Shown here: piece by piece, positions 1 to 18,678 of the stretch
How positions within the stretch are numbered: the first letter of the stretch is position 1
Layout of the letters: each line of letters begins with the position of its first letter
Assembly (NCBI GenBank): GCA_943789275.1
Contig: CALSTM010000001.1
Location: forward strand, 1 to 32,000
Reading direction: 5' to 3'
DNA: 32,000 nt
Source of the DNA: Candidatus Poseidoniaceae archaeon
GTDB lineage: Archaea > Thermoplasmatota > Poseidoniia > Poseidoniales > Poseidoniaceae
Made by a program: the position numbers and the translations under genes
Notes under the pieces: generated by a model
Databases searched by the model: none
What the model was told of the DNA's origin: nothing
Seen by the model: the letters and a program-made list of their open reading frames with translations, nothing else

Positions 1-627
1 GTGCTCTTGCTCGCAGTCATTCTGCTGCCTTTCGCCAGTGCTGAGACCTATCGAATCTCTGGCCGGGCAACCTATGCAGACGGTTCAGCCGTCCAACTTG
101 ACTACGTCTCCGTTCAGTGTGAACAAGCGCAATTCGACTGTTACCAATACCGAGGAACCAATGTCTTAACCGATGCATATGGCGACTTTACCATCGTCAT
201 TGATGCTGACGCTGAAGAAGACGAACTGGATATTCTGCTTGCTCTGCGTGGTGAAACATTCCTCCATACCATCGATATCTCTGCGCATGAGGCATCTTCA
301 GAAGGCAAACTCTACCAAGACATTCAATTGGCACAAAATCCACCTCCATCTGGCGTATTCATGGGCTTTGGCTGTTTTCTTGTCCTCTTTGTTTTGGTTT
401 TCGTCTCCGTCTTGCTGCGAACCGGTCGTCGCCTTTCAACCGCCCAAGGTCGTAGGGAGTTTGCAGGTTTTCGACCAGCTCGAATGTTGGAATGTCCGAA
501 ATGCAAGGAGCCAGTCGTCCAACATGAACTAATCAAACATTTCATCATTGAGCACGATCTTGACCCTGTGGATGCTGGTCAACTGACGGGTAAGGTCATG
601 CGTCGCTTGTGGTCCGAAGAAGAGTGA
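1..627 (+). CDS. membrane-anchored protein: signal-peptide end, carboxypeptidase-regulatory-like ectodomain, one TM helix, cytoplasmic C2H2-like zinc finger (5' end probably outside window)
   Basis: The ORF is open to the window start. LLLAVILLPFASA/ETY looks like the end of a signal peptide. ETYRISGRATYADGS...TDAYGDFTI resembles a CarboxypepD_reg-type beta-sandwich. A hydrophobic stretch GVFMGFGCFLVLFVLVFVSVLL is followed by RTGRR. The C-terminal ECPKCKEPVVQHELIKHFIIEH gives C-x2-C-x11-H-x4-H. Stop TGA at 625-627. Confidence 0.6.
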   Translation: MLLLAVILLPFASAETYRISGRATYADGSAVQLDYVSVQCEQAQFDCYQYRGTNVLTDAYGDFTIVIDADAEEDELDILLALRGETFLHTIDISAHEASSEGKLYQDIQLAQNPPPSGVFMGFGCFLVLFVLVFVSVLLRTGRRLSTAQGRREFAGFRPARMLECPKCKEPVVQHELIKHFIIEHDLDPVDAGQLTGKVMRRLWSEEE

Positions 628-631
628 GCAA

Positions 632-719
632 TCACATGTTACGTCGGTATTGGCCACCAACGTTGAACAGCGCATCGGTAATTTGTCCGAGTGAGGCGAC
701 TTTGACGGTCTCCATCAAT
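632..719. repeat. left copy of 88-bp direct repeat: orphan duplicate of the icmF 3' end (last 27 aa + stop)
   Basis: 632-719 matches 3865-3952 at 85/88 positions (constant offset 3233 nt). On the minus strand it reads METVKVASLGQITDALFNVGGQYRRNM*, identical to the IcmF C-terminus. The 3 mismatches (633, 653, 659) are TGA/TAA stop, GGC/GGG Gly and GTT/GTC Val, all silent. Confidence 0.9.
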
Positions 720-797
720 CTCAAATAGAGTCATTACTGCAAAATGAATCACTGTAATTTTGACAATGCGTTCAAATACTGTGGTCAGATGAATTGA

Positions 798-1091
798 TTG
801 TGTCCCTCTTACATTACGTCTGTGTCTGTGGAAAATGCCTGGTCCGGAAAAGTCACACAAAGTGTAGACCTTCTTTCGGTTGAAGATGCTAGAAAAGCCC
901 TCTTCATTGCGGATCTTACTTCCAAGAATCTTGTCGATCACAATGTGCCAAACATTCCATTTCCCTCAAAATTATTCGACTTCAATTCCGAAAAACTTGT
1001 TTCAGTATTCTATGGTGCTAACGGCTCAGGAAAAACTACTGTAATGCAGTTAGTTAACGGTTTTTCCTCAATATTAAAGCCTCTTCTTTGA
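798..1091 (+). pseudogene. ATPase segment 1 (Walker A / P-loop)
   Basis: The sequence ...NVPNIPFPSKLFDFNSEKLVSVFYGANGSGKTTVMQLVNG... has the typical N-terminus of AAA_21/ABC-type ATPases. The track start is a TTG. GTG at 945 would give the usual ~25 residues before the P-loop. The segment ends CTT CTT TGA (1089-1091). Confidence 0.6.
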
Positions 1092-1155
1092 CCAACATAG
1101 CAATCAAATTACGAGAGGGGCATCTCTTGCAGACCTCAGCGATTGGAGTAACGGC

Positions 1156-1923
1156 GTGATACCAAAGGGTTTCCAAGATGAAAAGAATCCTCGTTGCATT
1201 AAGTTTCTTCAATTTGGAAATAATCCACTAATTGCAAACATCACTTCAAGTATGGTTCGTAGGCGTAACCCACCTTTTTCCTCTCCATTGGAATCCATAG
1301 ACTGGAGAAGTAAGTTTCGTTTTTCAATGGAGGGAGTATGCGTTACTCCTGAACTATGGGATTTGACCGAGGATGAAAGTAAAAAAGTAACTATTGACTC
1401 AAGGTATAAGATTGAATTACTACCAACAAATGGTGGAATTTGCCTTGATTCTAATGGTCTCATAAAGGATAATAAGAAGGTAATCGAGAATTTGGAAGGT
1501 ACTTTCTATGCTCTTCGAATTGAATCAACCTCGTTTGAGAACCACATTCAATCTAGCATTGGAAAAGAGCATGATGGCCCAATGATGGAAATCAAGAAAA
1601 CAGATGACGAAACTCTTCAACACTCAATGAAATACGAGATTCCTCTCATGATACATCCGGATGGAGGTGTTCTTGTAATGAGTAGAACAGTAATGGATTT
1701 CTCAGAACTTTGGAATCCCGAGAATTCGGAAAGAACTGAACGATTCTCTGGTATAGAGGAGGAGGATATCGTGGTGATGAACGAGGAAAAGAAGTCGCAT
1801 CTTCCACTACTACATTACATGCTTGAAAGACCTTATTTAGCCGACGCAATTGGTTTCAGTGACTTTTTCAACTCTTTATGCGTAGGTCCAGCTTCTGCCG
1901 AAGAAAGAAAATTGTCAATTTAG
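1156..1923 (+). CDS. hypothetical 255-aa ORF; most likely segment 2 of the interrupted ATPase (insertion domain)
   Basis: No motif was recognised. The frame is already open from 1078, overlapping the stop of segment 1, and the track start is a GTG. AT-rich codon usage matches the rest of the islet. Confidence 0.4.
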   Translation: MIPKGFQDEKNPRCIKFLQFGNNPLIANITSSMVRRRNPPFSSPLESIDWRSKFRFSMEGVCVTPELWDLTEDESKKVTIDSRYKIELLPTNGGICLDSNGLIKDNKKVIENLEGTFYALRIESTSFENHIQSSIGKEHDGPMMEIKKTDDETLQHSMKYEIPLMIHPDGGVLVMSRTVMDFSELWNPENSERTERFSGIEEEDIVVMNEEKKSHLPLLHYMLERPYLADAIGFSDFFNSLCVGPASAEERKLSI

Positions 1924-2596
1924 CCGACAAATGATGTACGAACTCTTTTCAGAAGGCACACGCAGTGATTTCTTTCTTTCGTTCGATATGAAACCCCACA
2001 TATCGAGGTGGAAAAGGCAATATGGCCCTTCCTTCACTTCTTGATAAATCACATTTTGAGCGTTGGGAAGAGACTTTGGAGAGCAGGGACGAAGCCTCTT
2101 TCGAGTGGAGTGTAGATCGCTGTCAAGGCATTGATTTTTACGACTTGGCCATTTCACTTCAGTCGGAGTATATTTGGCCATCGAATTACACCCCGAAGAA
2201 ACTGAAAATGCCTCCTAAGAAAGTGGGTCGATTTACCTAATTTAGACGTTCTCGACAATCGTGCAGTGTTCAACCATGCAAGATTGATTTTGAACACACC
2301 TGATACCGCCTATGATGCAATTACAGAATTTCTCTCAATGACTTTTGATAGCAACAATATCGAGGGCTTGTACGATGCCTTTGTCGAACTCAAATCACTT
2401 ATACCCAAATATCGTCAAGATTCCAAGAGATATGGGAACACTATTGACAGTTTCCTTTTTGGTGAAATTGTCTGGAATAAACCCAACAATTGCCATCCTT
2501 TCGACTGGTTGATGGAAAAAATACTCTGAATCCTTTACCGCTAAAGGCTTTGATGAAGAACATGCTAAGATTGCTGCACAATCTGAAATCAGACAT

Positions 2597-3076
2597 TTGA
2601 TTAAGAACGGTCTTGAACAGATTTGGTTCCAAGAACTTGAACAACATGTTGTTTCAAATCGATTTGAACTCATGAACCAATTGCTGGAGAAGTATCTTAA
2701 TATCTGCGTTCTTGAACCGAATCAAGGCTTCAACCCTAACCGCTTGTTGATTAGAAAAAATACGGATAAAACTCTTCCTCGTCATGGTAGGTTGAAACCA
2801 AATATAGCAATCAATCAATTCTCAAGCGGTATGAAGAATTTGTTTAATCTCATTATGGCACTTGGTAATACCGAAATAAAAGGGCCACTACTCATTGATG
2901 AACCTGAAATTTCACTTCACATTGATTGGGAATACGCATTGAAGGATATTGCCACAAGTTTAGCAGATTCGACGAAGCGTCAGATCATTTTCTCGACCCA
3001 CTCACCGGATTTAATCATGAACTTTGGTGACCGGTCGAAAGTGTTTTTATCGGAGTATGAGCATGATGGCGAATGA
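2597..3076 (+). pseudogene. ATPase C-terminal segment (signature motif, Walker B, D-loop, H-loop); frame open from 2513
   Basis: INQFSSGMKNLFNLIMALGNTEIKGPLLIDEPEISLHIDWEYALKDIATSLADSTKRQIIFSTHSPDLI is a canonical C-terminal half of an AAA_21/ABC ATPase. It lacks its own P-loop, so it cannot be a stand-alone ATPase. The track start at 2597 is a TTG. Confidence 0.7.
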
Positions 3077-3860
3077 TATCCTTCTCCCTTCTTCAAAACC
3101 TTCTTTGAAGAATCGCGTTCTTTTGAGAGCTAAAAACAATGAATCCATTATTTTAGTTGAAGGATGGGAAGACCGTCAGTTTGTTAAAAAGGTGATTGGA
3201 ACGAAGGAAGAACATTTTATTCAGGTTTGTGACGGAAAAGAAAATGTCGTCAGCTTTCTTAATACTGTGAACGATACTACGGAATCAACTGCTTTTGCTC
3301 TCGTAGACATTGATTATGATTGGGCAAGAGATGAACCTCCAAATTATCTTGAAAACGAACACATCTTCCACTATCCAGCGCATTCACTTGAATCTTTCAA
3401 ATTCTTTTTCGAAAATGACGAATTCATCTCAAACCATGTTCAAACTGGAAATATTTCATTTGCGATAAAATGTGCAGTGATTATAGGACGGTTACGGGCA
3501 TGGAACTCTTGGAGAGACTTGGGGAAAAATTTTGACAATAATCTAGACAATGTTAAGTTTGCATTCAATACCTCATTTCCTTCCCGCGATCATAATATTT
3601 TTCTCACACAACTTTTAGAAATTTTTGAACTTGGACCAAACTTCTATTCCAACACACTTGATCAACATCTCAATGCAGCACAAATGAATGATTCGTTCAT
3701 AATTCATGGAAAGGACTTGCACAAGTTTTTCACTTACATGCAAGATGGTAAAAGTTTCAGACTCATTAGTAACCATGAACTCTCGTTAAGAGTGAGAAAT
3801 AGCACAATGCACAGACAATTCTTGGAAGCCAACCTCATCAGTGCCGAGAATGGAAATTAA
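3057..3860 (+). CDS. Toprim-like (DUF4435 / PARIS AriB-like) putative nuclease
   Basis: The ORF is intact. ATG at 3057 (or ATG at 3063 with GGAG 7 nt upstream) overlaps the ATPase stop at 3074-3076, suggesting translational coupling. The N-terminal ESIILVEGWEDRQFV carries a Toprim-type Glu, and FALVDIDYDW carries the DxD motif, both as in DUF4435/OLD Toprim domains. Assignment is by motif only. Confidence 0.6.
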   Translation: MSMMANDILLPSSKPSLKNRVLLRAKNNESIILVEGWEDRQFVKKVIGTKEEHFIQVCDGKENVVSFLNTVNDTTESTAFALVDIDYDWARDEPPNYLENEHIFHYPAHSLESFKFFFENDEFISNHVQTGNISFAIKCAVIIGRLRAWNSWRDLGKNFDNNLDNVKFAFNTSFPSRDHNIFLTQLLEIFELGPNFYSNTLDQHLNAAQMNDSFIIHGKDLHKFFTYMQDGKSFRLISNHELSLRVRNSTMHRQFLEANLISAENGN

Positions 3861-3864
3861 CCGT

Positions 3865-3952
3865 TTACATGTTACGTCGGTATTGCCCACCGACGTTGAA
3901 CAGCGCATCGGTAATTTGTCCGAGTGAGGCGACTTTGACGGTCTCCATCAAT
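3865..3952. repeat. right copy of 88-bp direct repeat (functional 3' end of icmF)
   Basis: See 632-719. This copy is contiguous with the intact 1112-codon icmF ORF. Confidence 0.9.
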
Positions 3953-6900
3953 TCTTCAAACACGTTTCCTCCGAGCCTTGCAACTTCTTGCAATTGCTTG
4001 AGTGCGGCTTGGGTCACTTCACCCTCAACGGTTTGACGCTCAGTCACTCGCTCTAAGCACGCTTCTTTTTCTTCAGGCGTTGCACGTGCCAATTCCATTT
4101 CGAAATCATCGGCACTCGATTCATCGAACACCTGAGCATTCGGATTCTGGAAGGTATTGACACCAATAATTGGCAGTGTTCCATCGTGCTTGAGGTGTTC
4201 GTAATACATCGATTCATCCTGAATCTTACCACGCTGATACATGGTTTCCATTGCACCAAGAACGCCACCTCGTCGGCTGATGGCTTCGAACTCTTTGAGC
4301 ACAGCCTCTTCGACCAAATCGGTCAACTCGTCAACAATGAACGAGCCTTGCATTGGATTTTCAGTCTTGGTCCAGCCGCTTTCCTTGTTGACAATCAACT
4401 GGATGGCAAGGGCTCTACGAACACTTTCCTCGGTTGGCGTTGTGATGGCCTCATCGTAGGCGTTGGTGTGCAGAGAGTTTGCATTGTCTTGAATGGCAAG
4501 CAGGGCTTGGAGTGTCGTTCGAATATCGTTGAAGTCGATTTCTTGCGCGTGGAGGCTGCGTCCACTGGTTTGGATGTGATACTTGAGCTTCTGACTTCGC
4601 TCATCTGCATCATACAAGTCTCGCATGGTGATGGCCCAAATACGTCGAGCAACTCGGCCAATAACCGTGTATTCAGGGTCAAGTCCGTTACTGAAGAAGA
4701 ACGACAAGTTCGGTGCGAATTTGTTGATGTCCATACCTCGACTTCGATAGTATTCAACATAGGTAAAACCGTTGGCAAGTGTCAGTGCCAATTGCGTAAT
4801 TGGATTGGCTCCAGCCTCGGCAATATGGTAACCTGAAATCGAGACCGAGTAGTGGTTTCGCACACCTTGGTCAATGTAGTATTGCTGAACGTCGCCCATC
4901 ATCTTGAGTGCGAAAGGCGTTGAGAAGATACAGGTATTCTGTGCCTGGTCTTCTTTGAGAATGTCGGCTTGAACGGTTCCACGAACTGTCTGTAAGGTCC
5001 GTGCTTTGATTTCGCCGTAGGTGGCAGCATCGACCATTTCATCGCCTCGACGTCCAACGGTAGCAAGTCCAAACGCATTGTGACCTTCAGGCAAATCGCC
5101 TCTGTATGCTGCCTCTTTCAATTCGATACTCTTTCCTTCTTTGACAAGGTGTGCCTCAACCTGTTGGTCGATAGCAGCATTGAGGAAGAACGCGAGGATG
5201 ATTGGTGCAGGTCCGTTAATGGTCATGCTGACCGAAGTGTTCGGATCGCACAAATCAAATCCAGAATACAGACGCTTTGCATCATCGCATGTAGCAATAC
5301 TGACACCAGAGTTTCCAACCTTGCCCCAAATATCAGGGCGTCGAGCAGGGTCACGGCCATACAGAGTCACCGAGTCAAACGCTGTTGATAATCGAACGTA
5401 GTCTTGGCCTTTACTCAAGTAGTGGAATCGGCGATTGGTTCGCTCGGCCTCGCCTTCTCCTGCAAACATTCGAGCCGATAACTCGTCGGTTCGCTTGAAC
5501 GGGAACACGCCTGCTGTGAACGGGAAATGACCCGGAGCGTTCTCTCTCTTGATGAACGAAAACAATTCGCCGTCATCAGCAAAGGTCGGAAGAGCAACAC
5601 GAGGAATGTCGGAATGCGCTAAAGATTCGGTTGTGGTTTGGACCGTGAACGGCTTGCCCCGAACGTGATAGGTGAACTCGCCGCTTGAGTACTGTTCGGC
5701 AAGTGCTCGGAATGCAGACAATTCCTCTCGGGCCGTTTCAATCGATTCAAGAATCTCATCAATTTGTGCTTGCAGGTCAGCAGCGATGGTATTCGCACCA
5801 CGCTCAGTCGCATGGTTTGCAGCAGTCTCAAGGTGTTGGCACAAGCGCAATTGCTGTGCAACCGCTTCGTGTCCTGCATGGTATTCGCGCACCGTTGCCG
5901 CAATTTCGGACAGGTAGTAGATGCGTTCTGGAGGAATAACGCCCTTGGTCGTCCCCATCTCACCAACCGGTTCGCTCGCTTCAAAACCAACGATTTCAGA
6001 GAGTTTGCACCACAGCCGGTCAACACCACCGTCAGCAAATTGGCTGGCAATGGTCGCTACGACTGGAAGTTCTTCATCCGCAACGTCAAACATGTTTCTG
6101 TTGCGTCGAACTTGCTTTCGAATGGCCCGGAAGGCGTCTTCACTGCCACGCTTTTCGTACTTGTTGAGCACGACGATATCAGCGACATCGAGCATCTCGA
6201 TCTTTTCGAGTTGGGTATGTGCACCGAACTCAGCGGTCATGACGTAGAGCGAATGGTCGGCCACAGATGTGATGGCATCACTGCCTTGACCTATGCCGCT
6301 GGTCTCGCAGAAAATCATGTCAAATCCAACCGCTTTGGCCACCTCAATGGCTCGGTCGAGGTTGGCACTGATTTCAGAACCAGAGCCTCGGCTGGCGAGG
6401 CTTCGCATGAACAAGTCATTGTTCGAAAGTGAGTTCATCCGGATACGGTCGCCAAGCAACGCTCCTCCAGTTCGCTTTCGTGTCGGGTCAACGCACAGCA
6501 AGCAGACTTTCTTACCCGGATTGTCGCGTTGAATACGCAGCATCAATTCATCGAGCAGACTTGACTTTCCTGCTCCACCGGTTCCGGTGAAACCAATCAC
6601 GGGTATATCCTTGTCAGAAGACCGTGCAGTGGCGATGGCAGCCTTGAACGTCGCATCATCGGCGCTTTCTGACAGCGTCATCAACAAGCCAACTTTAGCC
6701 ATGTCTTCAGCAGTCACCGGTCCATCGATGGAAGCAAGTCTCGTTTCGCCAATCAAATCGACTTCGGATGCTTGGCCCATCAAGTGATGAATCATACCCA
6801 TGAGGCCCATGGTTCGCCCGTCGTCCGGTGAGTAAATCTTGGAGATCCCCGATTGATGCAGTGTTCGAATTTCTGGTGGCGTAATGGTTCCTCCACCGCC

Positions 6901-7203
6901 GCCAAAGATACGAACATGGTCGCATCCTGCTTCATCGAGCAGTTGACGAATGTAGGTGAAGTACTCAATGTGCCCACCTTGGTAGGAGGTTAGAGCCACA
7001 GCGTGAGCGTCTTCTTGGACAGCGCAATCAACCACAGCCTTGGCCGATTGGTCGTGACCCAAATGGATGACTTCAGCGCCCGAGGATTGAATCAATCTTC
7101 GCATGACGTTGATGGCTGCGTCGTGACCGTCGAACAGCGATGCTGCAGTGATGACACGGACCGGTCCGGTCGTCGTCTCGAATACGGGCTCTTCATCGGC
7201 CAT
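3865..7203 (-). CDS. icmF: fused isobutyryl-CoA mutase (B12-binding domain + MeaB-like G-protein + mutase substrate domain)
   Basis: 1112 aa. The N-terminal VITAASLFDGHDAAINVMRR carries the DxHxxG B12 motif. GFTGTGGAGKSSLLDEL is the MeaB-type P-loop. The large C-terminal domain is of the methylmalonyl/isobutyryl-CoA mutase type. Domain order and length match IcmF. Confidence 0.9.
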   Translation of the reverse strand: MADEEPVFETTTGPVRVITAASLFDGHDAAINVMRRLIQSSGAEVIHLGHDQSAKAVVDCAVQEDAHAVALTSYQGGHIEYFTYIRQLLDEAGCDHVRIFGGGGGTITPPEIRTLHQSGISKIYSPDDGRTMGLMGMIHHLMGQASEVDLIGETRLASIDGPVTAEDMAKVGLLMTLSESADDATFKAAIATARSSDKDIPVIGFTGTGGAGKSSLLDELMLRIQRDNPGKKVCLLCVDPTRKRTGGALLGDRIRMNSLSNNDLFMRSLASRGSGSEISANLDRAIEVAKAVGFDMIFCETSGIGQGSDAITSVADHSLYVMTAEFGAHTQLEKIEMLDVADIVVLNKYEKRGSEDAFRAIRKQVRRNRNMFDVADEELPVVATIASQFADGGVDRLWCKLSEIVGFEASEPVGEMGTTKGVIPPERIYYLSEIAATVREYHAGHEAVAQQLRLCQHLETAANHATERGANTIAADLQAQIDEILESIETAREELSAFRALAEQYSSGEFTYHVRGKPFTVQTTTESLAHSDIPRVALPTFADDGELFSFIKRENAPGHFPFTAGVFPFKRTDELSARMFAGEGEAERTNRRFHYLSKGQDYVRLSTAFDSVTLYGRDPARRPDIWGKVGNSGVSIATCDDAKRLYSGFDLCDPNTSVSMTINGPAPIILAFFLNAAIDQQVEAHLVKEGKSIELKEAAYRGDLPEGHNAFGLATVGRRGDEMVDAATYGEIKARTLQTVRGTVQADILKEDQAQNTCIFSTPFALKMMGDVQQYYIDQGVRNHYSVSISGYHIAEAGANPITQLALTLANGFTYVEYYRSRGMDINKFAPNLSFFFSNGLDPEYTVIGRVARRIWAITMRDLYDADERSQKLKYHIQTSGRSLHAQEIDFNDIRTTLQALLAIQDNANSLHTNAYDEAITTPTEESVRRALAIQLIVNKESGWTKTENPMQGSFIVDELTDLVEEAVLKEFEAISRRGGVLGAMETMYQRGKIQDESMYYEHLKHDGTLPIIGVNTFQNPNAQVFDESSADDFEMELARATPEEKEACLERVTERQTVEGEVTQAALKQLQEVARLGGNVFEELMETVKVASLGQITDALFNVGGQYRRNM

Positions 7204-9437: not shown

Positions 9438-11366
9438 TCAGAATGCCTTGATTTCTTCATCGTGAAGCTTCAGTAGGTTTCGCAACTTGACCTTCATTGA
9501 AGGTGTCAACATGTCGTTATCCGTTGTCCACTCGACAGGGTCGAGAATCAGGTTTGCAGCACGCTCATAGCCTTTCCAAGTTGGAGCTTGCATGTTCTTT
9601 TCTCTCAATTCAGCAAGAAGCCACTCACGGGTTGAAGCACGAGCACAAATGTCGGCATTGCTGCCAGATGCATCGACGCCAGCACTGGTAAGGGCCGGCT
9701 TGAGGGCATCCATATTCGGGTGAACGATGAGGTAGGTCTTCAACATGTTTCGACCATCGAGAACGGCTTGTTCAACGAGCGGTGAAAGTTTGAGGTTTTC
9801 TTCAAGAGGAGCAGGAGACACGTACTTTCCGTTTTCCAACTTGAATTGGCTCTTGACACGGCCGGTAATCGAAAGGTAGCCATCGGATGATAGTTTACCC
9901 AAGTCTCCAGTTCTGAAGACACCCGGTTCCATAATCACTTCTTTGGTAGCAGCCTCGTTGTTCCAGTATCCTTGCATAACGTTTGGACCATGAACAATGA
10001 TTTCTCCTTCGTCAGGGCGTTCAGGGTCGTCCCATGCATCGGTATCGATGGTCACTTTGACGCCGTTAGCAACTCGGCCTACACAGCGCAGTTTCGAGGT
10101 GCCTGGTCCAGCCCATCCGTTGGCAGAAACCAGCGGTGAAGTTTCGGTTAGGCCGTAACCTTCGTAGCAACTGAATCCAACTTGCTGGATGAATGCCGCT
10201 ACATCGGGGGAAAGTGCGGCTGCACCGGACATACAGAATCGGATGTTACCACCAAATCGAGCACGAACCTTTGACCAAACGAGTTTGTCGTAGAACTTGT
10301 CGAAGAAACCAGATGCAGGAACAGCGTCACATTCGACACCAGCCTTTTCAATTCGCTTTGCAGCGGATTTCTTTGCTTTACCAATCAAGAACTTCTTGAC
10401 ACCTGTTGCTTCATTGAATTGACTGTTGACTCGGTCGTAGAACTTGTTCCACACACGAGGTACTGCCAGAAGAACTGCAGGCTTGATTTCGATGCACTCA
10501 TCTGCAATACGAGTGAGTTCTGAAATGAGGTTAATGTGGACACCGCAGCGAATCATCCAGTGCAAGTCAAAGGTGCTACCAAAGGAGTGAGCCCAAGGAA
10601 GGAAAGCAGCGTTCTTATCGCCGACATAGACCTTGAATGCGGATTGAACGCACAGTACGTTGGACAGCGTGTTCCAGTTGGTGAGCATGACACCCTTTGG
10701 GTTGCCAGTGGTACCGGAAGTGTAGATGAGCGTGTTGAGTGCAAACGGATCGTCTGCAACTTCAAACGTGTTCTCGCTTGCTCGTCCTGCGGCAACGAAA
10801 TCAGCCCATGCGTGTACTTCGATTCCTTCAGGAGGTATTTCATTTGCCGGTTCGTCACCGAGCAAAACCACACCGCATCGAGGCCATGCTGCAGCATCGC
10901 TTGGAAGGTGCTTGACCAGTTTGTCAAGGATTTCTGTGTTTGCTACTGCGAGCATCGAAGGTGTAGAATCGTTGAGGATGTACGCCCATTCATCGCCGTG
11001 TTGGTGCGTGTACATAGCGGTGTATGCTGCACCGATTCCGTTTGCGCCGTAAGCCATAGCAGCCCACTCGACACTGTTGTCAAGAATCAAAGCAATTCGT
11101 TCACCGGCTGCGACTCCTGCATCTGCCAGTTGCTGGCCAACAGCGGTGGCGAGTTCTCCGAATTCGTTGTATGTAATGTGGACACGTGGTGCGCCCTTAG
11201 CAGGAATATATCCGAAGCAATCGTTTGGTCCAAATCGTCCGACGCTGGTCATCAACATCTGGTAAACAGTACGTGGGTCATCGCCCTCGGGTTTCTCCCA
11301 TTGTCGGTCGTCCGGTTGTCGCTCCCATGCCATCTGCAGTTCTGCCATGAACACTAAGTGTAGCAT
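9438..11366 (-). CDS. long-chain fatty-acid--CoA ligase (AMP-forming, ANL superfamily)
   Basis: LIYTSGTTGNPKGVMLT AMP-binding motif, plus GYGLTETS, FRTGDLG and KLENGKYV. About 640 aa, as in ACSL-type enzymes. An alternative start ATG lies at 11348. Confidence 0.9.
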   Translation of the reverse strand: MLHLVFMAELQMAWERQPDDRQWEKPEGDDPRTVYQMLMTSVGRFGPNDCFGYIPAKGAPRVHITYNEFGELATAVGQQLADAGVAAGERIALILDNSVEWAAMAYGANGIGAAYTAMYTHQHGDEWAYILNDSTPSMLAVANTEILDKLVKHLPSDAAAWPRCGVVLLGDEPANEIPPEGIEVHAWADFVAAGRASENTFEVADDPFALNTLIYTSGTTGNPKGVMLTNWNTLSNVLCVQSAFKVYVGDKNAAFLPWAHSFGSTFDLHWMIRCGVHINLISELTRIADECIEIKPAVLLAVPRVWNKFYDRVNSQFNEATGVKKFLIGKAKKSAAKRIEKAGVECDAVPASGFFDKFYDKLVWSKVRARFGGNIRFCMSGAAALSPDVAAFIQQVGFSCYEGYGLTETSPLVSANGWAGPGTSKLRCVGRVANGVKVTIDTDAWDDPERPDEGEIIVHGPNVMQGYWNNEAATKEVIMEPGVFRTGDLGKLSSDGYLSITGRVKSQFKLENGKYVSPAPLEENLKLSPLVEQAVLDGRNMLKTYLIVHPNMDALKPALTSAGVDASGSNADICARASTREWLLAELREKNMQAPTWKGYERAANLILDPVEWTTDNDMLTPSMKVKLRNLLKLHDEEIKAF

Positions 11367-11404
11367 TAAGCACTTGAATGGTTCGCCGGTTTTTCAATGG
11401 GATT

Positions 11405-12172
11405 TTACCCGTTCAATACTGAAATGACGTTTTCCCGCCAGTCTGCTCCTTCGTTGCGGTTGGCCAAAGGACTTGCAGGACTGGGGTGCCAACAGGTGTC
11501 AATACGCACACTGCGGCCGTCTCTGCTCGTGCCATCACCCGATTTTCCGGCCTCCAATGCCATTCGAGCTCGTTGTTCGGCATACTTCCCAACACCGATG
11601 ATTCGTGTAATACCCATAATGTCGACCACGTCAAGGAGGTGCTCATCGCATGCTTTCAGAATCGGGTTCATAACGGATGCTGGAAGGTTATTCGGTGTGA
11701 TGTTTTTCCCCGTTTCGCCAAGGAGTAACAGTGGGCAATGATTGACAACGAAGATGTTGCTGAAGGTCGATTCAGCCGAACCATAGTGCTGTTCCATGAG
11801 ATTCCATAATCGCGTTCCTGAGATTTCTTGCCGTTCGAGAGCCATTCCTTCAATTGGACGTTTTGGATGTGCGTTTTCTGGGGTCTTCAGTTCACGGGCT
11901 TCAATTTCCAGAAACGATTGTGCAACGGCAGTTGCACCGAACGGCACGCCGGTTTGCGCCATGCCCCAAGGGCCAGGATTCATTCCAAGCAGCAGCGTGT
12001 GGCTGCCGAGGTTTCCCCATTTGAGCAAGAATTGTTCATGGTGGGGCCAAGCATAGTCGAGTGGGTTTGTGGCATGGGCAACAATGGTTTTTTTCTCAAG
12101 AGTCGCAATTGCGGCATCGCATATCTTGGACAAGCGCTGCGCTGCTTGTGCAAGTTGTTCGCCGATGTCCAT
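11405..12172 (-). CDS. SMUG1-type uracil-DNA glycosylase (UDG family 3)
   Basis: LGMNPGPWGMAQTGVPFG and WHPSPASPLANR closely match the two SMUG1 signature motifs (GMNPGPxGMAQTGVPFG; HPSPRNPxAN). Confidence 0.85.
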   Translation of the reverse strand: MDIGEQLAQAAQRLSKICDAAIATLEKKTIVAHATNPLDYAWPHHEQFLLKWGNLGSHTLLLGMNPGPWGMAQTGVPFGATAVAQSFLEIEARELKTPENAHPKRPIEGMALERQEISGTRLWNLMEQHYGSAESTFSNIFVVNHCPLLLLGETGKNITPNNLPASVMNPILKACDEHLLDVVDIMGITRIIGVGKYAEQRARMALEAGKSGDGTSRDGRSVRIDTCWHPSPASPLANRNEGADWRENVISVLNG

Positions 12173-12661
12173 GCTTACGGGAAGTAAAGACGCTACATGA
12201 GTCTATTCTTCGTCTTCACGTCGAATCGAGATGAGGAATCCTGCACTGATTGCTACTGCCGTTCCAACCATGCCGAGTGCTGGTAATGAATCGCCGTCTA
12301 CGGCAATTGTTCCGTTGTCATCAATGGTAACCTCAAGGCCATCGCATGCTGTCCCTACCCCATTGCCATCCAAATCAGCTTGGTCAGAATTGGCGATAAG
12401 CGGACAATTGTCATTCGCATCGGCCACTCCATCGCCGTCATCATCAGCATCGGTATTGTCGCCAACACCATCGCCGTCAAGATCAGATTGTTCAGTTGGG
12501 TCATTCGGGAATGCGTCATCAGCATCGGCCAATCCATCACCGTCAGTGTCTCCATCGCACACATCGCCTAAGCCATCTTGGTCAAGATCAGATTGATCAG
12601 AGTTGTTTGTGGTAGGGCAATTATCCAATGTGTCGATGATTCCGTCGCCATCGGTATCTGT

Positions 12662-12863
12662 GGTGTTGTTACCGCCGGTGTTGTTGCCGGTGTTGTTACC
12701 GCCAGTGTTGTTACCGCCGGTGTTGTTTCCGCCGGTGTTGTTCCGCCGGTGTTGTTACCGCCAGTGTTGTTACCGCCGGTGTTGTTACCGCCGGTGTTGT
12801 TTCCGCCGGTGTTGTTACCGCCGTGTTGTTACCGCCGCCCGTGTTGTTACCGCCAGTGTTGTT
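12662..12863. repeat. 15-nt microsatellite, ~13.5 units of GGTGTTGTTACCGCC (minus strand GGC GGT AAC AAC ACC = GGNNT)
   Basis: Read directly from the sequence. There is one 12-nt unit (12677-12688), two 14-nt units (12734-12747, 12823-12836) and one extra GCC (12837-12839). Confidence 0.9.
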
Positions 12864-13181
12864 GCAATCAACTTCGATGTTGTAGTAAAACGGGCTGTTT
12901 GAAAACAAATTGCTCAATCCAGAATCCGCTGGATTAAGCATTATTGTGTAAACACCAGCAGAGAGTACAGATGTATTGAAGGTCCAATCATAAGATACAA
13001 TGCCCGACGAATTTATGTTGATCAACGGACTTCCGGAAGCAACAATCGCTGAGCCACTCGTGATTTCCCACTCAAGATAGAATTCAGTTGCATTAAGTCC
13101 GCTGATTGTCATGAATATTTCAATGTCTTCTGCAGTACTGAAGCAATATTGTGGTAAATAAGCATTGTAAGTTAATTGAGT

Positions 13182-14718
13182 GGTGTTGTTTCCGCCGTTG
13201 TTTCCTCCACCGCTTGTTTGATTCAAGACCGAGAAGTAATCGTAATCGGAATCCAATTGTATCCAGGTTTGGTTGGCATCATAATAGCCAAGAACAGCAT
13301 AGAAATCATACGTTCCTGATTGGGTGAGCGTGGTGTTCCAAATTTCATTGGTATAGGTTGAGTTGCTTGCGATCCACGACATGTTTCCTGAATCAACGGT
13401 AGAGTTCGATGCGTCAAGAATCGAGTAATCAAGGGTCATGGTCATGTTCACAAGTCCACAATAGACGCTCATGCTTCCGGTGAAGGTGTCGTTCACGTAG
13501 TAGTACGATGAATACGAATAGGCATAGAGGGAAGTGTATGACGCATCATCACCGCATCCACCGGTGTTGTTTCCGCCGTTGTTTCCTCCACCGCTTGTTT
13601 GATTCAAGACCGTGAATGTATCATAGCCCGTATCCAGTTGTATCCAGGTTTGGTTGGCATCGATAATAGCCAAGAACAGCATAGAAACCATACGTTCCAG
13701 ATTGAGTGAGCGTGGTGTTCCAAATTTCATTGGTATAGGTTGAGTTGCTTGCGATCCACGACATGTTTCCTGAATCAACGGTAGAGTTCGATGCGTCAAG
13801 AATCGAGTAATCAAGGGTCATGGTCATGTTCACAAGTCCACAATAGACGCTCATGCTTCCAGTAAAGGTGTCGTTCACGTAGTAATACGATGAATACGAA
13901 TAGGCATAGAGGGAAGTGTATGACGCATCATCACCGCATCCACCGGTGTTGTTTCCGCCGTTGTTTCCTCCACCGCTTGTTTGATTCAAGACCGTGAATG
14001 TATCATAGCCCGTATCCAGTTGTAGTCCAGGTTTGGTTGGCATCGATAATAGCCAAGAACAGCATAGAAACCATACGTTCCTGATTGAGTGAGGGTGGTG
14101 TTCCAAATTTCATTGGTATAGTTTGAGGTGCTTGCGATCCACGACATGTTTCCTGAATCAACGGTAGAGTTCGATGCGTCAAGAATCGAGTAATCAAGGG
14201 TCATGGTCATGTTCACAAGTCCGCAATTGACGCTCATGACACCGGTGAAGGTGTCGTTCACGTAGTAGTACGATGAATACGAATAGGCATAGAGGGAAGT
14301 GTATGACGCATCATCACCGCATCCCCGGTGTTGTTTCCACCGGTGTTGTTTCCGCCGTTGTTTCCTCCACCGCTTGTTTGATTCAAGACCGTGAATGTAT
14401 CATAGCCCGTATCCAGTTGAGTCCAGGTTTGGTTGGCATCATAATAGCCAAGAACTGCATAGAAACCATACGTTCCTGCTTGCGTGAGGGTCGTGTTCCA
14501 AAATTCGTAGGTATAGTTTGAGGTGATTGGGACCCACGACATGTTTCCTGAATCAACGGTAGAGTTGGATGCGTCAAGAATCGAGTAATCAAGGGTCATG
14601 GTCATGTTCACAAGTCCGCAATTGACGCTCATGACACCGGTGAAGGTGTCGTTCACGTAATAATACGATGAAAACGAATAGGCGTAGAGGGAGGTGTAAG
14701 ACGCATCGTTGCCACAAC
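13182..14718. repeat. tandem ~381-bp repeat, 4 near-identical copies (127-aa domain plus GGGNNGGNNTGG linker)
   Basis: The landmark cgcttgtttgattcaagacc recurs at 13211, 13592, 13974 and 14371, giving periods of 381, 382 and 397 nt. The encoded unit is CGDDASYTSLYAYSYSSYYYVNDTFTG...LGYYDANQTWIQLDTGYDTFTVLNQTSGGGNN. Confidence 0.9.
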
Positions 14719-14800
14719 CTGTAGAGCTGTTTCCACCACCGGTGCCGCCATCTGTGTCTTCGGTTGCATCGCGGCATCCGTCTCCATCAGCATCGGTCGT

Positions 14801-15046
14801 GTTTGAAGAAATCCAACCAAGGTCACCAGTCATACATGAGTCATCGGCATCCAATACTCCGTCGTTGTCATCATCCAAATCTTCAGATGAGTCTTGGCAA
14901 CCATCAGAATCGTAATCGGTCGTGTTTGAAGAAATCCAACCAAGGTTACCCACCATACATGAGTCGTAGGCATCGACAAGTCCGTCGTTGTCATCATCCA
15001 TATCTTCAGACGAGTTGTCTTTACAACCGTCACCGTCATGGTCAGT
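14801..15046. repeat. 123-bp (41-aa) tandem repeat x2 (+ partial third) encoding TSP3-type modules
   Basis: gtttgaagaaatccaaccaagg recurs at 14801 and 14924. The encoded units are D(H/Y)DGDGC(K/Q)D(N/S)SED(M/L)DDDNDG(L/V)(V/L)DA(Y/D)DSCM(V/T)G(N/D)LGWISSNTT. Confidence 0.8.
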
Positions 15047-15297
15047 AATGTACGAAGAGGTCCAGTTTGTTTCTCCGTTTGGACAGTCGTCATTGGTATC
15101 GTATATTCCATCTCCATCCGTATCGGTGGTGTTGTTCGAGGACATGACTACGGTTGGTGAATCAAGTTCTGTGGCACGTTCTTCGCCCGGAATTTGGTTC
15201 AAGTGGCCAGTGAAAGCTTGTCCCAGTAAAAGCAGCATGAAGAGGATGGATACTGAGGTCGCAGGCTTGAGTTGCATGGACGCGCTACAGCATCTCA

Positions 15298-15357
15298 ACT
15301 TAAATGGTAGGGGATGTGTTTTGCTTTCGACAAGTATATTCATAATAAATATATATC
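15298..15357 (-). promoter_or_regulatory. AT-rich upstream region of the surface-protein gene with TATA-like elements
   Basis: On the minus strand, ATTTAAGT (15305-15298) lies ~27 nt upstream of ATG 15277. That spacing fits an archaeal TATA box driving a leaderless mRNA. A longer ATATATATTTATTATGAATATA tract sits at ~15336-15357. No experimental support. Confidence 0.25.
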
Positions 15358-15376
15358 CACCCACTCTGGGTAAAAA

Positions 15377-17188
15377 CTATTCCTGTTCAAAATAAAGGGA
15401 ATATTCATCGTTCCAATCGATGGACGTCGCCTTGAACCACTCTTCAGCGGAATCAAACGCTTCTTGCCCGGGATTCTTTCGTTTACGCTTGGCACGCTGT
15501 GAAATGAGTTTCCAAGCAGTCTTTTCGCCGATGCCTGGAATGGCCTCTAATTGCTTTTGAGACACTTTTTCTGCCTGAAGTCCGGTTTCAACCCCTGTGA
15601 TCGAACGAGCTCCGTGTCCAGTAACAACGACGGTCGATTGAGTTTCGAGCGGAATATGGTATTCGACGCCAATGAGTATTGGATAAGCACCGATTTGCCT
15701 TCCAAAGGTGATGCCGGCTTTACCTCGGCATGACTCCGCAGTATGCGCTTCATTGAGGTGCGCAGTAAGTCTCGTTCGACCATCATGCGTCTCCCAATGC
15801 ACACCGGATAATTTTTCACCCAAAGGGAATAATTCTTCAAGGAGTGGGCCATCAATGGTGTCGCGAACGTTAGTTTTGAACGTGTTAAACGCTTTTTGAG
15901 GAATGTCTTGAAATCCTTCTCCTTCGACTTGCCGGATGTTAATACGGCGCAATAACAAACCCTCTCGGCGAATTTCATGCAGTAAGTCAAGGTTCATCTG
16001 GTAACTCGCCTCTGTTTCACCGTTTAACCCAGCAATAAAATTGAGTCCAGGTAGCAACTTTGGCAAACCTCTTTCTCCACGAACTGAACCGTATGTATTG
16101 ATCAGTCGTATTGCTGACTTGAGTTGAGCAGGGTCGCAATTGAGCCAATTCGCTTCGTGGACACTTGGGTCAGCTGATTCAAGACCAAATGAAAGTACGG
16201 CGCCATCAGATAATGTCTCAACGAGCGTTTTTGTGATTGCTTCGGATTCTTCGAGGTTTTCAGCAATGATTGAGGGGTTGCCGTTGTCGGTGTGAAGGAT
16301 TCCTAAACGCTCATCATCGCGTAAACCATGAAGCAGTTTGGCAATCGGCTCTGGATTTGGAACTGGATATTCAAGTTCCTTTACGCCTTCTGCCATGTAG
16401 GTGTAGGTGTCGGTCATGCCTCCAAGCCGAACATGCTGCACTCCTCCATCGTGAGCTCGACGAACTTCTTCGATAATGTCTTCCGGAGTTCGCCAAATCG
16501 GGACACCCTTCTTTGGTTCAATACAGAATTTGCATCCACGCTTGTAACGTACACATCCTTGGTAGACTTCGACTTCGTAGGTGAGGGGGCCTTTCTTTTC
16601 GTCAGTGCCAAGGTCAGGATGGGTTGTTACTGCCTTACTTAACGCCCCAGCCTGAGCCCATCGCGTCCATTGTTCTGCGCTCCGACGAGTGTGCTTCCAC
16701 GCCCCAGTTTCAAGATAGGTGTTCAGCGTTGCATCCGTGTCTTGAACGGCCAAAAAGAGATTCTTCCGCAGTGGTGTCCATCCTTGTTGCCTCCAACCAC
16801 GAATCGCCCATCCACCAAACAAAGCCGGAATTGAATGCGGTAGGTCTCGTATAAGGCTACGAGTTTCCTTTAGAGACAGTGGAGTTCCACGCAGATAGCG
16901 CCCTGGTACAACGGCTCCAGCAATACAAGCAAACCCTTCAAGTGTGGAAAGTCGTTTTTTTGCCCACTCATCACCGTTGCTGCGAATCAAGTCTCTCCAC
17001 TGATCGATGGTGAGATAATCGTAGTCGACATTCGCTTCTTCAAGCACTCCACAAAGATAGCGGATATGAAATCCAACATAAGGTGGGACACCAAACGCAG
17101 CTGGCTCATCTTCATAGCCGTCAAGAATCAACCATTTGGGTGAATGCTGTTCGACCATGTTGGCTAACCTCAGGTCGGTTGGCTTCAA
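15377..17188 (-). CDS. radical-SAM-type Fe-S enzyme with C-terminal helix-hairpin-helix (COG1031-like, function unknown)
   Basis: The Cys cluster GCVRYKRGCKFCIEP (C-x6-C-x2-C) is a variant of CX3CX2C. About 600 aa. The C-terminal LEAIPGIGEKTAWKLISQR is an HhH motif. The TTG start at 17188 overlaps the csl4 stop (TTGA). An alternative ATG lies at 17158. Confidence 0.6.
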   Translation of the reverse strand: MKPTDLRLANMVEQHSPKWLILDGYEDEPAAFGVPPYVGFHIRYLCGVLEEANVDYDYLTIDQWRDLIRSNGDEWAKKRLSTLEGFACIAGAVVPGRYLRGTPLSLKETRSLIRDLPHSIPALFGGWAIRGWRQQGWTPLRKNLFLAVQDTDATLNTYLETGAWKHTRRSAEQWTRWAQAGALSKAVTTHPDLGTDEKKGPLTYEVEVYQGCVRYKRGCKFCIEPKKGVPIWRTPEDIIEEVRRAHDGGVQHVRLGGMTDTYTYMAEGVKELEYPVPNPEPIAKLLHGLRDDERLGILHTDNGNPSIIAENLEESEAITKTLVETLSDGAVLSFGLESADPSVHEANWLNCDPAQLKSAIRLINTYGSVRGERGLPKLLPGLNFIAGLNGETEASYQMNLDLLHEIRREGLLLRRINIRQVEGEGFQDIPQKAFNTFKTNVRDTIDGPLLEELFPLGEKLSGVHWETHDGRTRLTAHLNEAHTAESCRGKAGITFGRQIGAYPILIGVEYHIPLETQSTVVVTGHGARSITGVETGLQAEKVSQKQLEAIPGIGEKTAWKLISQRAKRKRKNPGQEAFDSAEEWFKATSIDWNDEYSLYFEQE

Positions 17189-18678
17189 TCCTTCTTCTCG
17201 CGTCGACGTCGAGGACGCTTCTTTGAATCCTCTTCCTCTTCACGAAGTGCTTGAAGTTCACGGGATGATTTACCACCGGAGTTGTCAGAACCACGCTTTT
17301 CACGGTTGTTACCGCCTTTCTTTCCGCCTTGAGATACATCGACTTTGATGCGTCGTCCGAGCAATTCAGAACCGTTGAGTTTAGAGACAATTTCTTCACC
17401 CTTATCCATTTCCTTGATGAAGGCAAAAGCGAATCCCTTTGGTTTTCCATCACCACTGGTGGCGATAACAAGGCCGTTGACGGTTGCCATACCATCGAAC
17501 ATGGCTCGGATGTTTTCTTCAGTTGCCTTGAACGGAAGATTTCCGATGTAAAGTTTGAGTCCTTCAGGGTCCTTACGCTTTTCTCGCTTGCCCTTCTTGT
17601 CATCGCTGTCAGCATCTCGCACACCGATTTTACGGCCGTTGATTTTGTGGCCGTTGAGTTTTTCAGCTGCCGCATCCGCTTGAGACTTTTCAGAGTAAGT
17701 GACGAAACCGAATCCTCGGTTGACACCATTATCATCGGTCAACACAATACAATCGGTCATGTCGCCGTGTTCAGCAAACAGTGCACGAAGTTCTTCAGTT
17801 CCAACTTCACGCGGTAGGCCACCAACAAACAATCGGCAACCTGGTGCGTTTCGTGGACGGCGTCCTTTACCACCGCTCTCGCCTTCGAATCGGAAGTAGG
17901 TACGTTCACGGCCGTCTTCACGGACATCTGCTGCGATGAAGGTTGCTCGTCCTGCTGGTCCCTTGCCAAACATGGCCTCTGCAGCAGCACCCCAGCGCTT
18001 ACCGGAGTTGTTGAGCGCACTTGCACCTTGGTCGAGTTCAGCCCAACCAGCGCCGTAGTTGTCAGCGAGTGCTCGGTACGATTGGTAGTTGCATGTTGGA
18101 CATCGGACGTTCCAATCTCCATCGAGGTCAGCGCCCAACACATCGCCACACGATGGGCATATGGCATGGAGTACACCGCAGTCGTCACGGTCACGGAAAC
18201 TGATGCGTAAAACGGGGGATGTTTCTTTGACTTCTGCTCGACAGACATCTCGTCGTCGAACTGCGTCAGCGGTTTGGTGCATGTAGCGGTCGACTATTCC
18301 AGTGACGTGAAACTGACCGTAGAGGTGTTCAGGCAGAACGCTACCGGGCTTGCCTTCGATGCAAAGAACCTGAGCCTCTCCGTTCTTTTCGTTGAGTTTG
18401 ACAATTTCACAAAGCACGGTATCGCCGACTTCTGGTGTGACAATTTCCTTTTGAGCGGCAACGATGGCGATGCCGTCTTGAATTGAAAACATGCCTGTTG
18501 CGGTTGCTAAAATCGATCCATTGACTTCAATGGTTCCATCTCCAGCCTCGCATTCTGCTGAGGTTGATACTTGTGTTCCGGGGGTGACGAGGCTCGGCGT
18601 CATATTTTTCATTCCTGTAGCAAACATGGCCTGAGGTAGGTCGCATGCTGTTTCGCTTGATTGAACCGGTGTGTTCAC
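17185..18678 (-). CDS. csl4: exosome cap subunit Csl4 (N-domain + S1 + Zn-ribbon) fused to two C-terminal RRM domains and a basic tail
   Basis: Residues ~30-205 carry VTPGTQV..., GDTVLCEIVKL...AQVLCI (S1) and CPSCG...x...CPTCN (Zn-ribbon), as in archaeal Csl4. RRM1 spans aa 282-355 (RNP2 LFVGGL, RNP1 RGFGFVTY). RRM2 spans aa 374-448 (LYIGNL, KGFAFAFI). The Lys/Arg-rich tail is KKRPRRRREKKD. Confidence 0.85.
   Translation of the reverse strand: MNTPVQSSETACDLPQAMFATGMKNMTPSLVTPGTQVSTSAECEAGDGTIEVNGSILATATGMFSIQDGIAIVAAQKEIVTPEVGDTVLCEIVKLNEKNGEAQVLCIEGKPGSVLPEHLYGQFHVTGIVDRYMHQTADAVRRRDVCRAEVKETSPVLRISFRDRDDCGVLHAICPSCGDVLGADLDGDWNVRCPTCNYQSYRALADNYGAGWAELDQGASALNNSGKRWGAAAEAMFGKGPAGRATFIAADVREDGRERTYFRFEGESGGKGRRPRNAPGCRLFVGGLPREVGTEELRALFAEHGDMTDCIVLTDDNGVNRGFGFVTYSEKSQADAAAEKLNGHKINGRKIGVRDADSDDKKGKREKRKDPEGLKLYIGNLPFKATEENIRAMFDGMATVNGLVIATSGDGKPKGFAFAFIKEMDKGEEIVSKLNGSELLGRRIKVDVSQGGKKGGNNREKRGSDNSGGKSSRELQALREEEEDSKKRPRRRREKKD

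Follow-up and report, generated by a model that had tools for sequence, protein, structure and literature searches.

The cis-mobilisable elements (CIMEs) of Streptococcus derive from ICESt1 and ICESt3 and sit in the 3' end of fda, where they are bounded by attL and attR; their repeats measure ~27 bp, they have no integrase of their own and they depend on functions supplied in trans. Integrative islands regenerate the gene that they enter and leave its displaced fragment behind, as reported for Islander (PMC4383910) and for tycheposons (10.1101/2020.12.28.424599). The PARIS defence system of Escherichia coli pairs the ABC ATPase AriA with the DUF4435/Toprim nuclease AriB and is found at phage P2/P4 hotspots (PMC9122126, PMC11464382). 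Here we describe a locus with features of each of these, contained in a 32-kb stretch of DNA (the window) from a Poseidoniaceae (Marine Group IIa) archaeon; all coordinates refer to this window, and L-numbers denote the related contigs and genomes that were compared with it. An AT-rich islet that encodes an AriA-like ATPase and an AriB-like protein lies at the 3' end of icmF, between two copies of the icmF gene end. On balance, we favour reading it as a horizontally mobile, two-gene PARIS-like cassette that carries a copy of its target junction and moves by homology-dependent recombination catalysed in trans. Marine Group II, which ranks with the most abundant archaea of the plankton, has no cultured members, and its mobile elements and antiviral defences are little known.

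As in the tDNA islands of Islander and the tycheposons of Prochlorococcus, the repeats correspond to the 3' end of the target, with the island supplying a new gene end and the old one orphaned. The islet is likewise AT-rich, carries predicted defence cargo, is present in some relatives and absent from others, and occupies a hotspot for different cargo. It differs from those islands in targeting the protein-coding icmF as opposed to a tRNA or tmRNA gene, in belonging to a Marine Group II archaeon, in measuring no more than 3.2 kb, in lacking an integrase, excisionase or replication module in every copy, and in having mosaic repeats. With the CIMEs the cassette shares both the 3' end of a protein-coding gene as its site and the lack of an integrase of its own. 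It differs from them in that no helper or integrase is known, the repeats span 88-102 nucleotides (nt), the host is archaeal and the cargo is a single predicted defence operon.

The two direct repeats (632-719 and 3865-3952, coding on the minus strand) are identical at 85 of 88 positions at an offset of 3233 nt. Exactly two copies occur in the window, with 0 matches in 100 shuffles, and all three mismatches (at 633, 653 and 658; minus-strand TGA/TAA, GGC/GGG and GTT/GTC) are silent. The right copy is the true, functional end of icmF (3865-7203, minus strand), an intact gene of 1112 codons. Its product scores 1652 bits, above the cut-off of 1500, with the NCBIfam equivalog NF045497 and contains B12-binding, MeaB and mutase domains, which identifies it as a fused isobutyryl-CoA mutase/GTPase and rules out the secretion-system protein called IcmF. 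The best genome match to the window is 95% identical over the IcmF C-terminus, and there is no exact match to the window's IcmF protein on record. The left copy (28 codons and a TGA stop) is an orphan that begins 4 nt (GCAA) past the stop of the convergent gene1 (1-627, plus strand). This left-flanking open reading frame (ORF) encodes the 3' part of a conserved hypothetical membrane protein, 208 of 214 codons, the start being cut by the window edge; its 439 homologues are nearly all 214 amino acids long and none has a Pfam domain.

Between the repeats lies the islet of 3145 nt (720-3864), with a GC content of 0.37-0.42 (38% overall) against 0.49-0.54 in the flanks and ~50% in the genome, and with coding on the plus strand throughout. 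It consists of a 78-nt 5' non-coding leader (720-797), the AriA-like ABC/AAA_21 ATPase gene (798-3076, 756 codons), the intact AriB-like DUF4435/Toprim gene (3057-3860, 265-267 codons) and a 4-nt spacer, CCGT (3861-3864), that separates the stops of ariB and icmF and in junction alignments occupies the position of the gene1-icmF spacer. Alignment of five filled loci places a sharp and conserved left islet boundary between ...CCATCAAT and CTCAAATAGAGTC. The insertion has left the amino-acid sequence of IcmF unchanged and has displaced the native gene end as the orphan. An earlier sequence-only reading of the window had described the near-identical repeat, its synonymous mismatches, the right copy as the true icmF end and the AT-rich, plus-strand islet, and each of these observations was reproduced.

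The same reading had predicted an empty site in which gene1 converges directly on icmF with one copy of the 88 nt. Such sites were found in L081-L083, L085, L086 and L095, that of L081 in a 1.4-Mb contig, and a single-copy junction is present in nine of ten contigs of a distant lineage (L097-L105). In empty sites the stops of gene1 and icmF are separated by 3-5 nt. The single copy of L095 equals the left copy of the window at 88 of 88 positions, with the same GCAA spacer and with identical local flanks to either side. This identifies the left copy as the native icmF end, displaced, and places all three differences (the TAA stop, GGG and GTC) on the incoming right copy. Since the TAA stop is common to the right copies of L087, L092, L093 and L094, and every empty site examined has TGA, TAA travels with the islet. 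Both junctions are spanned by independent contigs in L093 (JGI, 4401 nt) and L087 (643 kb), and one junction in L090 and L092, from other samples and assemblers. Among species-representative genomes, gene1, the islet and a second gene-end copy are all absent at eleven Poseidoniales icmF loci; synteny is kept upstream of icmF and breaks exactly at its stop codon. These eleven loci are unusable as empty sites, and do show that the locus is variable.

The minimal cassette, with identical boundaries and at the same site, was recovered in L087, in L088 and L089 (both Logan), in L090 (ENA) and in L092 and L093 (both conspecific with the window); at least four lineages besides that of the window have it. 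At filled loci the ariB stop lies 4-5 nt from the icmF stop. Filled and empty alleles coexist within one species, represented by L087 (filled) and L081 (empty), with icmF 98.7% and the next gene (ABC-F) 99.9% identical between them. When the window is compared with L093, the islets differ at 2 of 3139 positions (0.06%), against 2.2% in the icmF flank and 9.0% in the gene1 flank (Fisher p 1e-10 to 1e-26 for islet versus flank), and the repeats are the most divergent segments of all (right 11%, left 15%). Between the window species and the L081/L087 species, divergence at silent sites (dS) is 0.18 for ariB and 0.76 for icmF. Because the divergence of the islet is far below that of its flanks, both within and between species, the cassette is much younger than the host genomes and has crossed species boundaries. 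Within gene1, a patch at 499-561 differs between the window and the conspecific L093 at ~25 of 63 positions, compared with a few percent in its surroundings, and has the appearance of a tract recombined in from a divergent allele.

Homologues of the AriB-like protein form six clusters among 5.8 billion proteins, and in each of their contigs they adjoin the icmF stop. Divergent modules are included, that of L094 (48% AriB identity) ending 32 nt and that of L091 (40%) ending 3 nt from the icmF stop; in five of six lineages the ariB stop takes the position expected for the stop of gene1. The sequence-only reading had suggested looking for the islet elsewhere, and it does recur in related contigs at this site; it was found neither next to an integrase nor in viral, phage or plasmid collections. 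The 32-nt ariB-icmF spacer of L094 (1674-1705; 3-5 nt elsewhere) starts with GTCACAT, like the icmF stop region TCACATG, and could be what remains of an earlier insertion. Upstream of the L091 module, candidates for a decayed orphan copy scored no better than shuffled sequence. The L088 contig (Logan SRR20403663, 3235 nt) corresponds to exactly one repeat-to-repeat unit, equivalent to window positions 656 to 3894 with ends that overlap by 6 nt. This form fits a repeat-bounded unitig, and a circular form would look identical.

That the element brought its own gene-end copy, one that evolved as coding sequence in a relative, was also part of the sequence-only reading, and it is borne out by the L095 and TAA comparisons and by the right copies of other loci. 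L092 and L093 share 98-99.9% identity with the window in the islet and the icmF flank, yet their right copy differs from that of the window at 10 of 88 positions. All ten differences are silent (Ser TCA to AGT, Leu CTC to CTA/CTT, Gly GGA to GGT), the peptide is the same, and icmF ends of the AGT type also occur in L001-L004, L009 and L079. Ten silent changes, including a serine codon switch, with the peptide kept demonstrate that the right-copy alleles evolved as working coding sequence elsewhere. Decay is seen in orphans: that of L093 is frameshifted by the loss of 1 nt and also shows amino-acid changes, that of L088 has Ser-to-Cys and Gly-to-Asp changes, and that of L090 a Val-to-Ala change. 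The repeat is 14 nt longer in L090 (GAAGAGTGAACT[G/C]C) and there also takes in the spacer and the final codons of gene1: GAAGAGTGA and the spacer that follows it repeat the gene1 end at 13 of 14 positions, so that ariB terminates on gene1's own stop. This extension, together with the ariB stop at the position of the gene1 stop, indicates that the carried segment is a copy of the whole convergent junction.

The repeats themselves are mosaic. The two copies of L087 resemble host sequence in their middle part, and the variants linked to the islet are confined to the islet-facing ends, while the repeats of the window and L093 agree only over 18 nt and 9 nt beside the islet. A crossover within 702-719 fits L087 and L093; yet islets that are nearly identical are joined to right copies of differing allele, and mosaicism affects both copies. 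A single fixed crossover does not by itself explain the L087 mosaic together with the short window-L093 agreement, although gene conversion could account for the pattern.

The ATPase contains a Walker A motif (GANGSGKT), a signature motif (SSGM), a Walker B motif (LLIDEPE) and an H-loop (STHS). It matches Pfam AAA_21 (74.9 bits) and AAA_15 (54.8 bits), its top PADLOC match is AriA (8e-21), and its best PDB sequence match is again AriA (8v45, 8ux9; E 3e-8), in an alignment confined to the last ~75 residues; the AriA models match only in this C-terminal stretch and the Walker A region. The second protein matches Pfam DUF4435 (31.6 bits against a cut-off of 27). Its top PADLOC match is AriB (E 1e-10), with one weak match to mad4 (0.006), and AriB is the only PADLOC match of the L088 orthologue. 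Residues E35, D84, D86 and D88, the Toprim-type Glu and DxDxD, are invariant across seven AriB-like homologues. Both cassette genes are under purifying selection, with ratios of nonsynonymous to silent divergence (dN/dS) of 0.25-0.30 for the ATPase and 0.28-0.47 for the AriB-like protein. As in PARIS, two overlapping genes encode an ATPase followed by a DUF4435 protein, the acidic Toprim residues are kept and the setting is a variable hotspot for mobile DNA. The ATPase departs from AriA in size and architecture: it has 745-756 amino acids (~87 kDa) against ~464 for AriA (~53-55 kDa), with a long unmatched insert that leaves ~550 amino acids between Walker A and the signature motif. On account of this size and insert, we class the pair as a putative PARIS-like defence system, as opposed to bona fide PARIS. 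A further difference is that it belongs to an archaeal host and is known from its genes alone. In PARIS, AriA assembles into a hexameric scaffold for AriB, and the antiviral response is set off by an anti-restriction protein and involves tRNA cleavage. If family membership alone is taken as a guide, infection would be sensed by the ATPase, which would then free the Toprim nuclease as its PARIS counterpart does. A search of GenBank phages and PLSDB plasmids with the intact ATPase gave nothing relevant, the only match being a Pseudoalteromonas AAA ATPase at 31% identity.

In the window itself the ATPase gene is broken into ORFs at 798-1091, 1156-1923, 2022-2240, 2266-2529 and 2597-3076. Comparison with L087, L088, L090 and L093 revealed six private 1-nt insertions, near 804, 1087, 1908, 1994, 2236 and 2516, each of which extends a run of the same base by one. 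Removing them in silico yields a stop-free ORF of 756 codons with 2 substitutions relative to L093. The insertion at 804 may merely shift the start codon from GTG-800 to TTG-798. Because six insertions stand against two substitutions and no deletions, a pattern unlike neutral decay, the frameshifts are probably sequence errors, or otherwise very recent decay, and the cassette family appears to be intact and functional. Programmed frameshifting was rejected, as the insertions are missing from every relative. Elsewhere in the contig, 1-nt indels are also seen between the units of a 382-nt tandem repeat (13182-14707). The start of the ATPase gene (808-826, TTACATTACGTCTGTGT) can be aligned, with a gap of 2 nt, to the part of the icmF repeat nearest the stop (TTACATGTTACGTCGGTAT); the resemblance ends there and probably arose by chance.

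In the reading we favour, the cassette would enter and leave by Campbell-type recombination between its carried copy and the chromosomal copy. Crossovers would fall at variable positions within the shared segment, pointing to homology-dependent exchange, and the catalyst would act in trans, the simplest candidate being the host homologous-recombination machinery. The same repeats would permit precise loss of the cassette, and repeated exchange at varying positions would erode the carried copy towards the host sequence, a prediction that the mosaics match. Insertion of a circle by a single Campbell-type crossover similarly gives flanking direct repeats, a variable crossover point and reversibility with no recombinase of its own. 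That, however, is a laboratory or plasmid phenomenon, whereas the case here would be a natural defence cassette with a circular form that is only hypothetical, its junction expected to read ariB end, CCGT, 88 nt and CTCAAATAGAG. We also consider, tentatively and with more doubt than confidence, that the locus exemplifies a class of integrase-free "address-tagged" defence cassettes of streamlined marine archaea, each comprising one operon and a ~100-nt copy of a convergent gene junction and inserted and excised by host homologous recombination; the address tag would direct the cassette to its site and rebuild both flanking gene ends scarlessly.

Several points weigh against movement of a defence cassette by host recombination. 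The pattern of an excised circle or tandem junction had 0 matches in JGI metagenome contigs, which leaves the circular intermediate hypothetical, and the event that first created the duplication is left without explanation. An integrase reaction followed by gene conversion between the repeats would yield the same mosaics. All of the contigs are metagenomic, so strain-chimeric assembly inside the 88-nt repeats could inflate the apparent mosaicism. The homology extends over just 88-100 nt, and its sufficiency for recombination in these uncultured archaea is an assumption. The defence role of the cargo is a prediction; the AriB-like protein, differing in this too from PARIS, has no sequence-level PDB match, and its AlphaFold model, built on a 7-sequence alignment, was unusable (predicted local distance difference test score, pLDDT, of 44).

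A possible though less likely explanation is a cis-mobilisable or satellite element with attL and attR at its ends, served by a site-specific integrase of the tyrosine or serine type whose gene lies elsewhere in the genome or on a helper element. The 88 nt would then be the attP/attB identity block, and the mosaics would have arisen later from gene conversion and ordinary allelic recombination in icmF. The architecture, with the target regenerated and the displaced fragment at the other end, is that of a textbook integrative island (PMC4383910; 10.1101/2020.12.28.424599), the boundaries are sharp and identical at every filled locus, and a crossover in the innermost ~18 nt (702-719) accommodates L087, L093 and, if its carried copy was host-matched, the window as well. 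However, no recombinase domain was detected in the islet, the window, six cassette versions or the neighbouring islands, in agreement with the sequence-only reading, which had noted the lack of an integrase. Viral contigs gave 0 matches to the AriB-like protein and 0 to a degenerate icmF-end pattern designed to pick up a viral attP, and a fixed crossover needs extra events to account for right copies that differ at 10 of 88 positions beside islets that differ at 2 of 3139. Host homologous recombination and an unseen integrase are inseparable on these data. The sequence-only reading had spoken of site-specific integration; the specificity for one site stands, and an enzymatic mechanism is only one candidate, as the mosaics fit homology-driven recombination at least as well. 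Of its two alternatives, a stranded remnant or an element mobilised in trans, the second is closer to the favoured reading. A remnant of a larger element that lost its integrase, either here or a single time in some ancestor, and afterwards spread through flank recombination would suit the missing integrase and the larger defence islands seen at this locus in L091, L097 and L098. It is nevertheless very improbable: the 78 nt between the left repeat and the ATPase start and the 4 nt between the ariB stop and the right repeat leave no room for, or trace of, other genes, five lineages have the identical minimal unit, whose age is well below that of its flanks, and the near-identity of window and L093 extends no more than 18 nt and 9 nt past the islet edges, unlike random flank crossovers.

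Improbable, too, is a single ancient insertion that was inherited vertically and is now immobile, its presence and absence reflecting repeated precise deletion. Precise deletion is feasible between direct repeats that match perfectly over 61 nt or more, and modules with 48% and 40% AriB identity at the same site suggest long residence. Yet the islet is 4-fold less diverged than icmF at synonymous sites between species and ~35-fold less diverged than its flanks between conspecific strains, and the orphan of the window is undecayed and equal to a living allele, while that of L093 has decayed beside a near-identical islet. An assembly duplication or chimeric join would draw on nothing beyond the general risk of metagenome assembly and has a negligible probability, since both junctions are reproduced in independent JGI, ENA and Logan contigs and the two copies differ from one another at positions that match alleles found elsewhere. 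Two further classes of element were rejected. A transposon, casposon or insertion sequence would not leave a duplication as long as 88-102 nt, and the islet has neither a transposase or Cas1 domain nor inverted repeats pairing its ends. An integron cassette is discounted by a repeat that is an icmF coding fragment as opposed to a palindromic attC, by the lack of IntI and by the cassette's own 78-nt leader. Scans for tRNA genes and Rfam families across the 32-kb window returned nothing.

The region past gene1 holds varied defence-like genes in other lineages and is different again in the species-representative genomes; the stretch downstream of icmF is thus a flexible island and behaves as a defence island hotspot. 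At this locus, L097 (1-7918) has genes for a SACS-domain protein, an SNF2/ResIII helicase and a DNA methylase, and L098 (80-3880) has DUF6996/DUF6997 and D12 methyltransferase genes. In L091 (1-7700), the relative with 40% AriB identity lies among HATPase_c_3, Z1, DUF4420 and DNA methylase genes, a neighbourhood that, by its predicted domains, is a typical defence island. In L001, the closest representative genome, icmF is followed by ~3.4 kb of low-GC DNA (11054-14450; GC 0.35-0.44) with ORFs of 198 and 676 amino acids without Pfam matches. A second icmF end is absent there, and DNA of normal GC without long ORFs continues to the contig end with no Rfam match. Homology was not found between the large unknown proteins of the L001 and L091 islands, which contain no Pfam domains.

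The locus provides a clean natural case of a putative defence operon that moves within and between species at one defined site in a metabolic gene, with empty and filled alleles both available and a measurable age difference between cassette and flanks. It also extends PARIS-like ATPase/Toprim pairs, with a much enlarged ATPase, to the archaea. If the cassette does move without a dedicated recombinase, this would constitute a simple and general route of flexible-gene turnover in streamlined ocean microbes, and the icmF-end junction could serve as a marker for defence-gene flux in metagenome time series. Should the address-tag reading hold, it would explain how defence genes move in populations seemingly without plasmids, integrases or prophages.

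Two other regions of the window are of note. The first takes in 13182-14707, and also 12662-12863. Here the 382-nt repeat mentioned above forms four tandem units with 94% matches in a large, lower-GC surface-protein region, beside an ORF with TSP_3 repeats. Because of the single-base indels between the units, ORFs in this region lie in differing frames (12711-13814, 13621-14106 and 14258-15364), whereas L085 has a single ORF of more than 779 amino acids. A 15-nt repeat (GGTGTTGTTACCGCC, 13.6 copies) is located just upstream of the tandem array. Finally, a minus-strand ORF of 497 amino acids (17185-18678) combines an N-terminal match to the exosome Rrp4-like ECR1_N domain with two strong RRM_1 matches (E 2e-31), an unusual combination for an archaeal protein.

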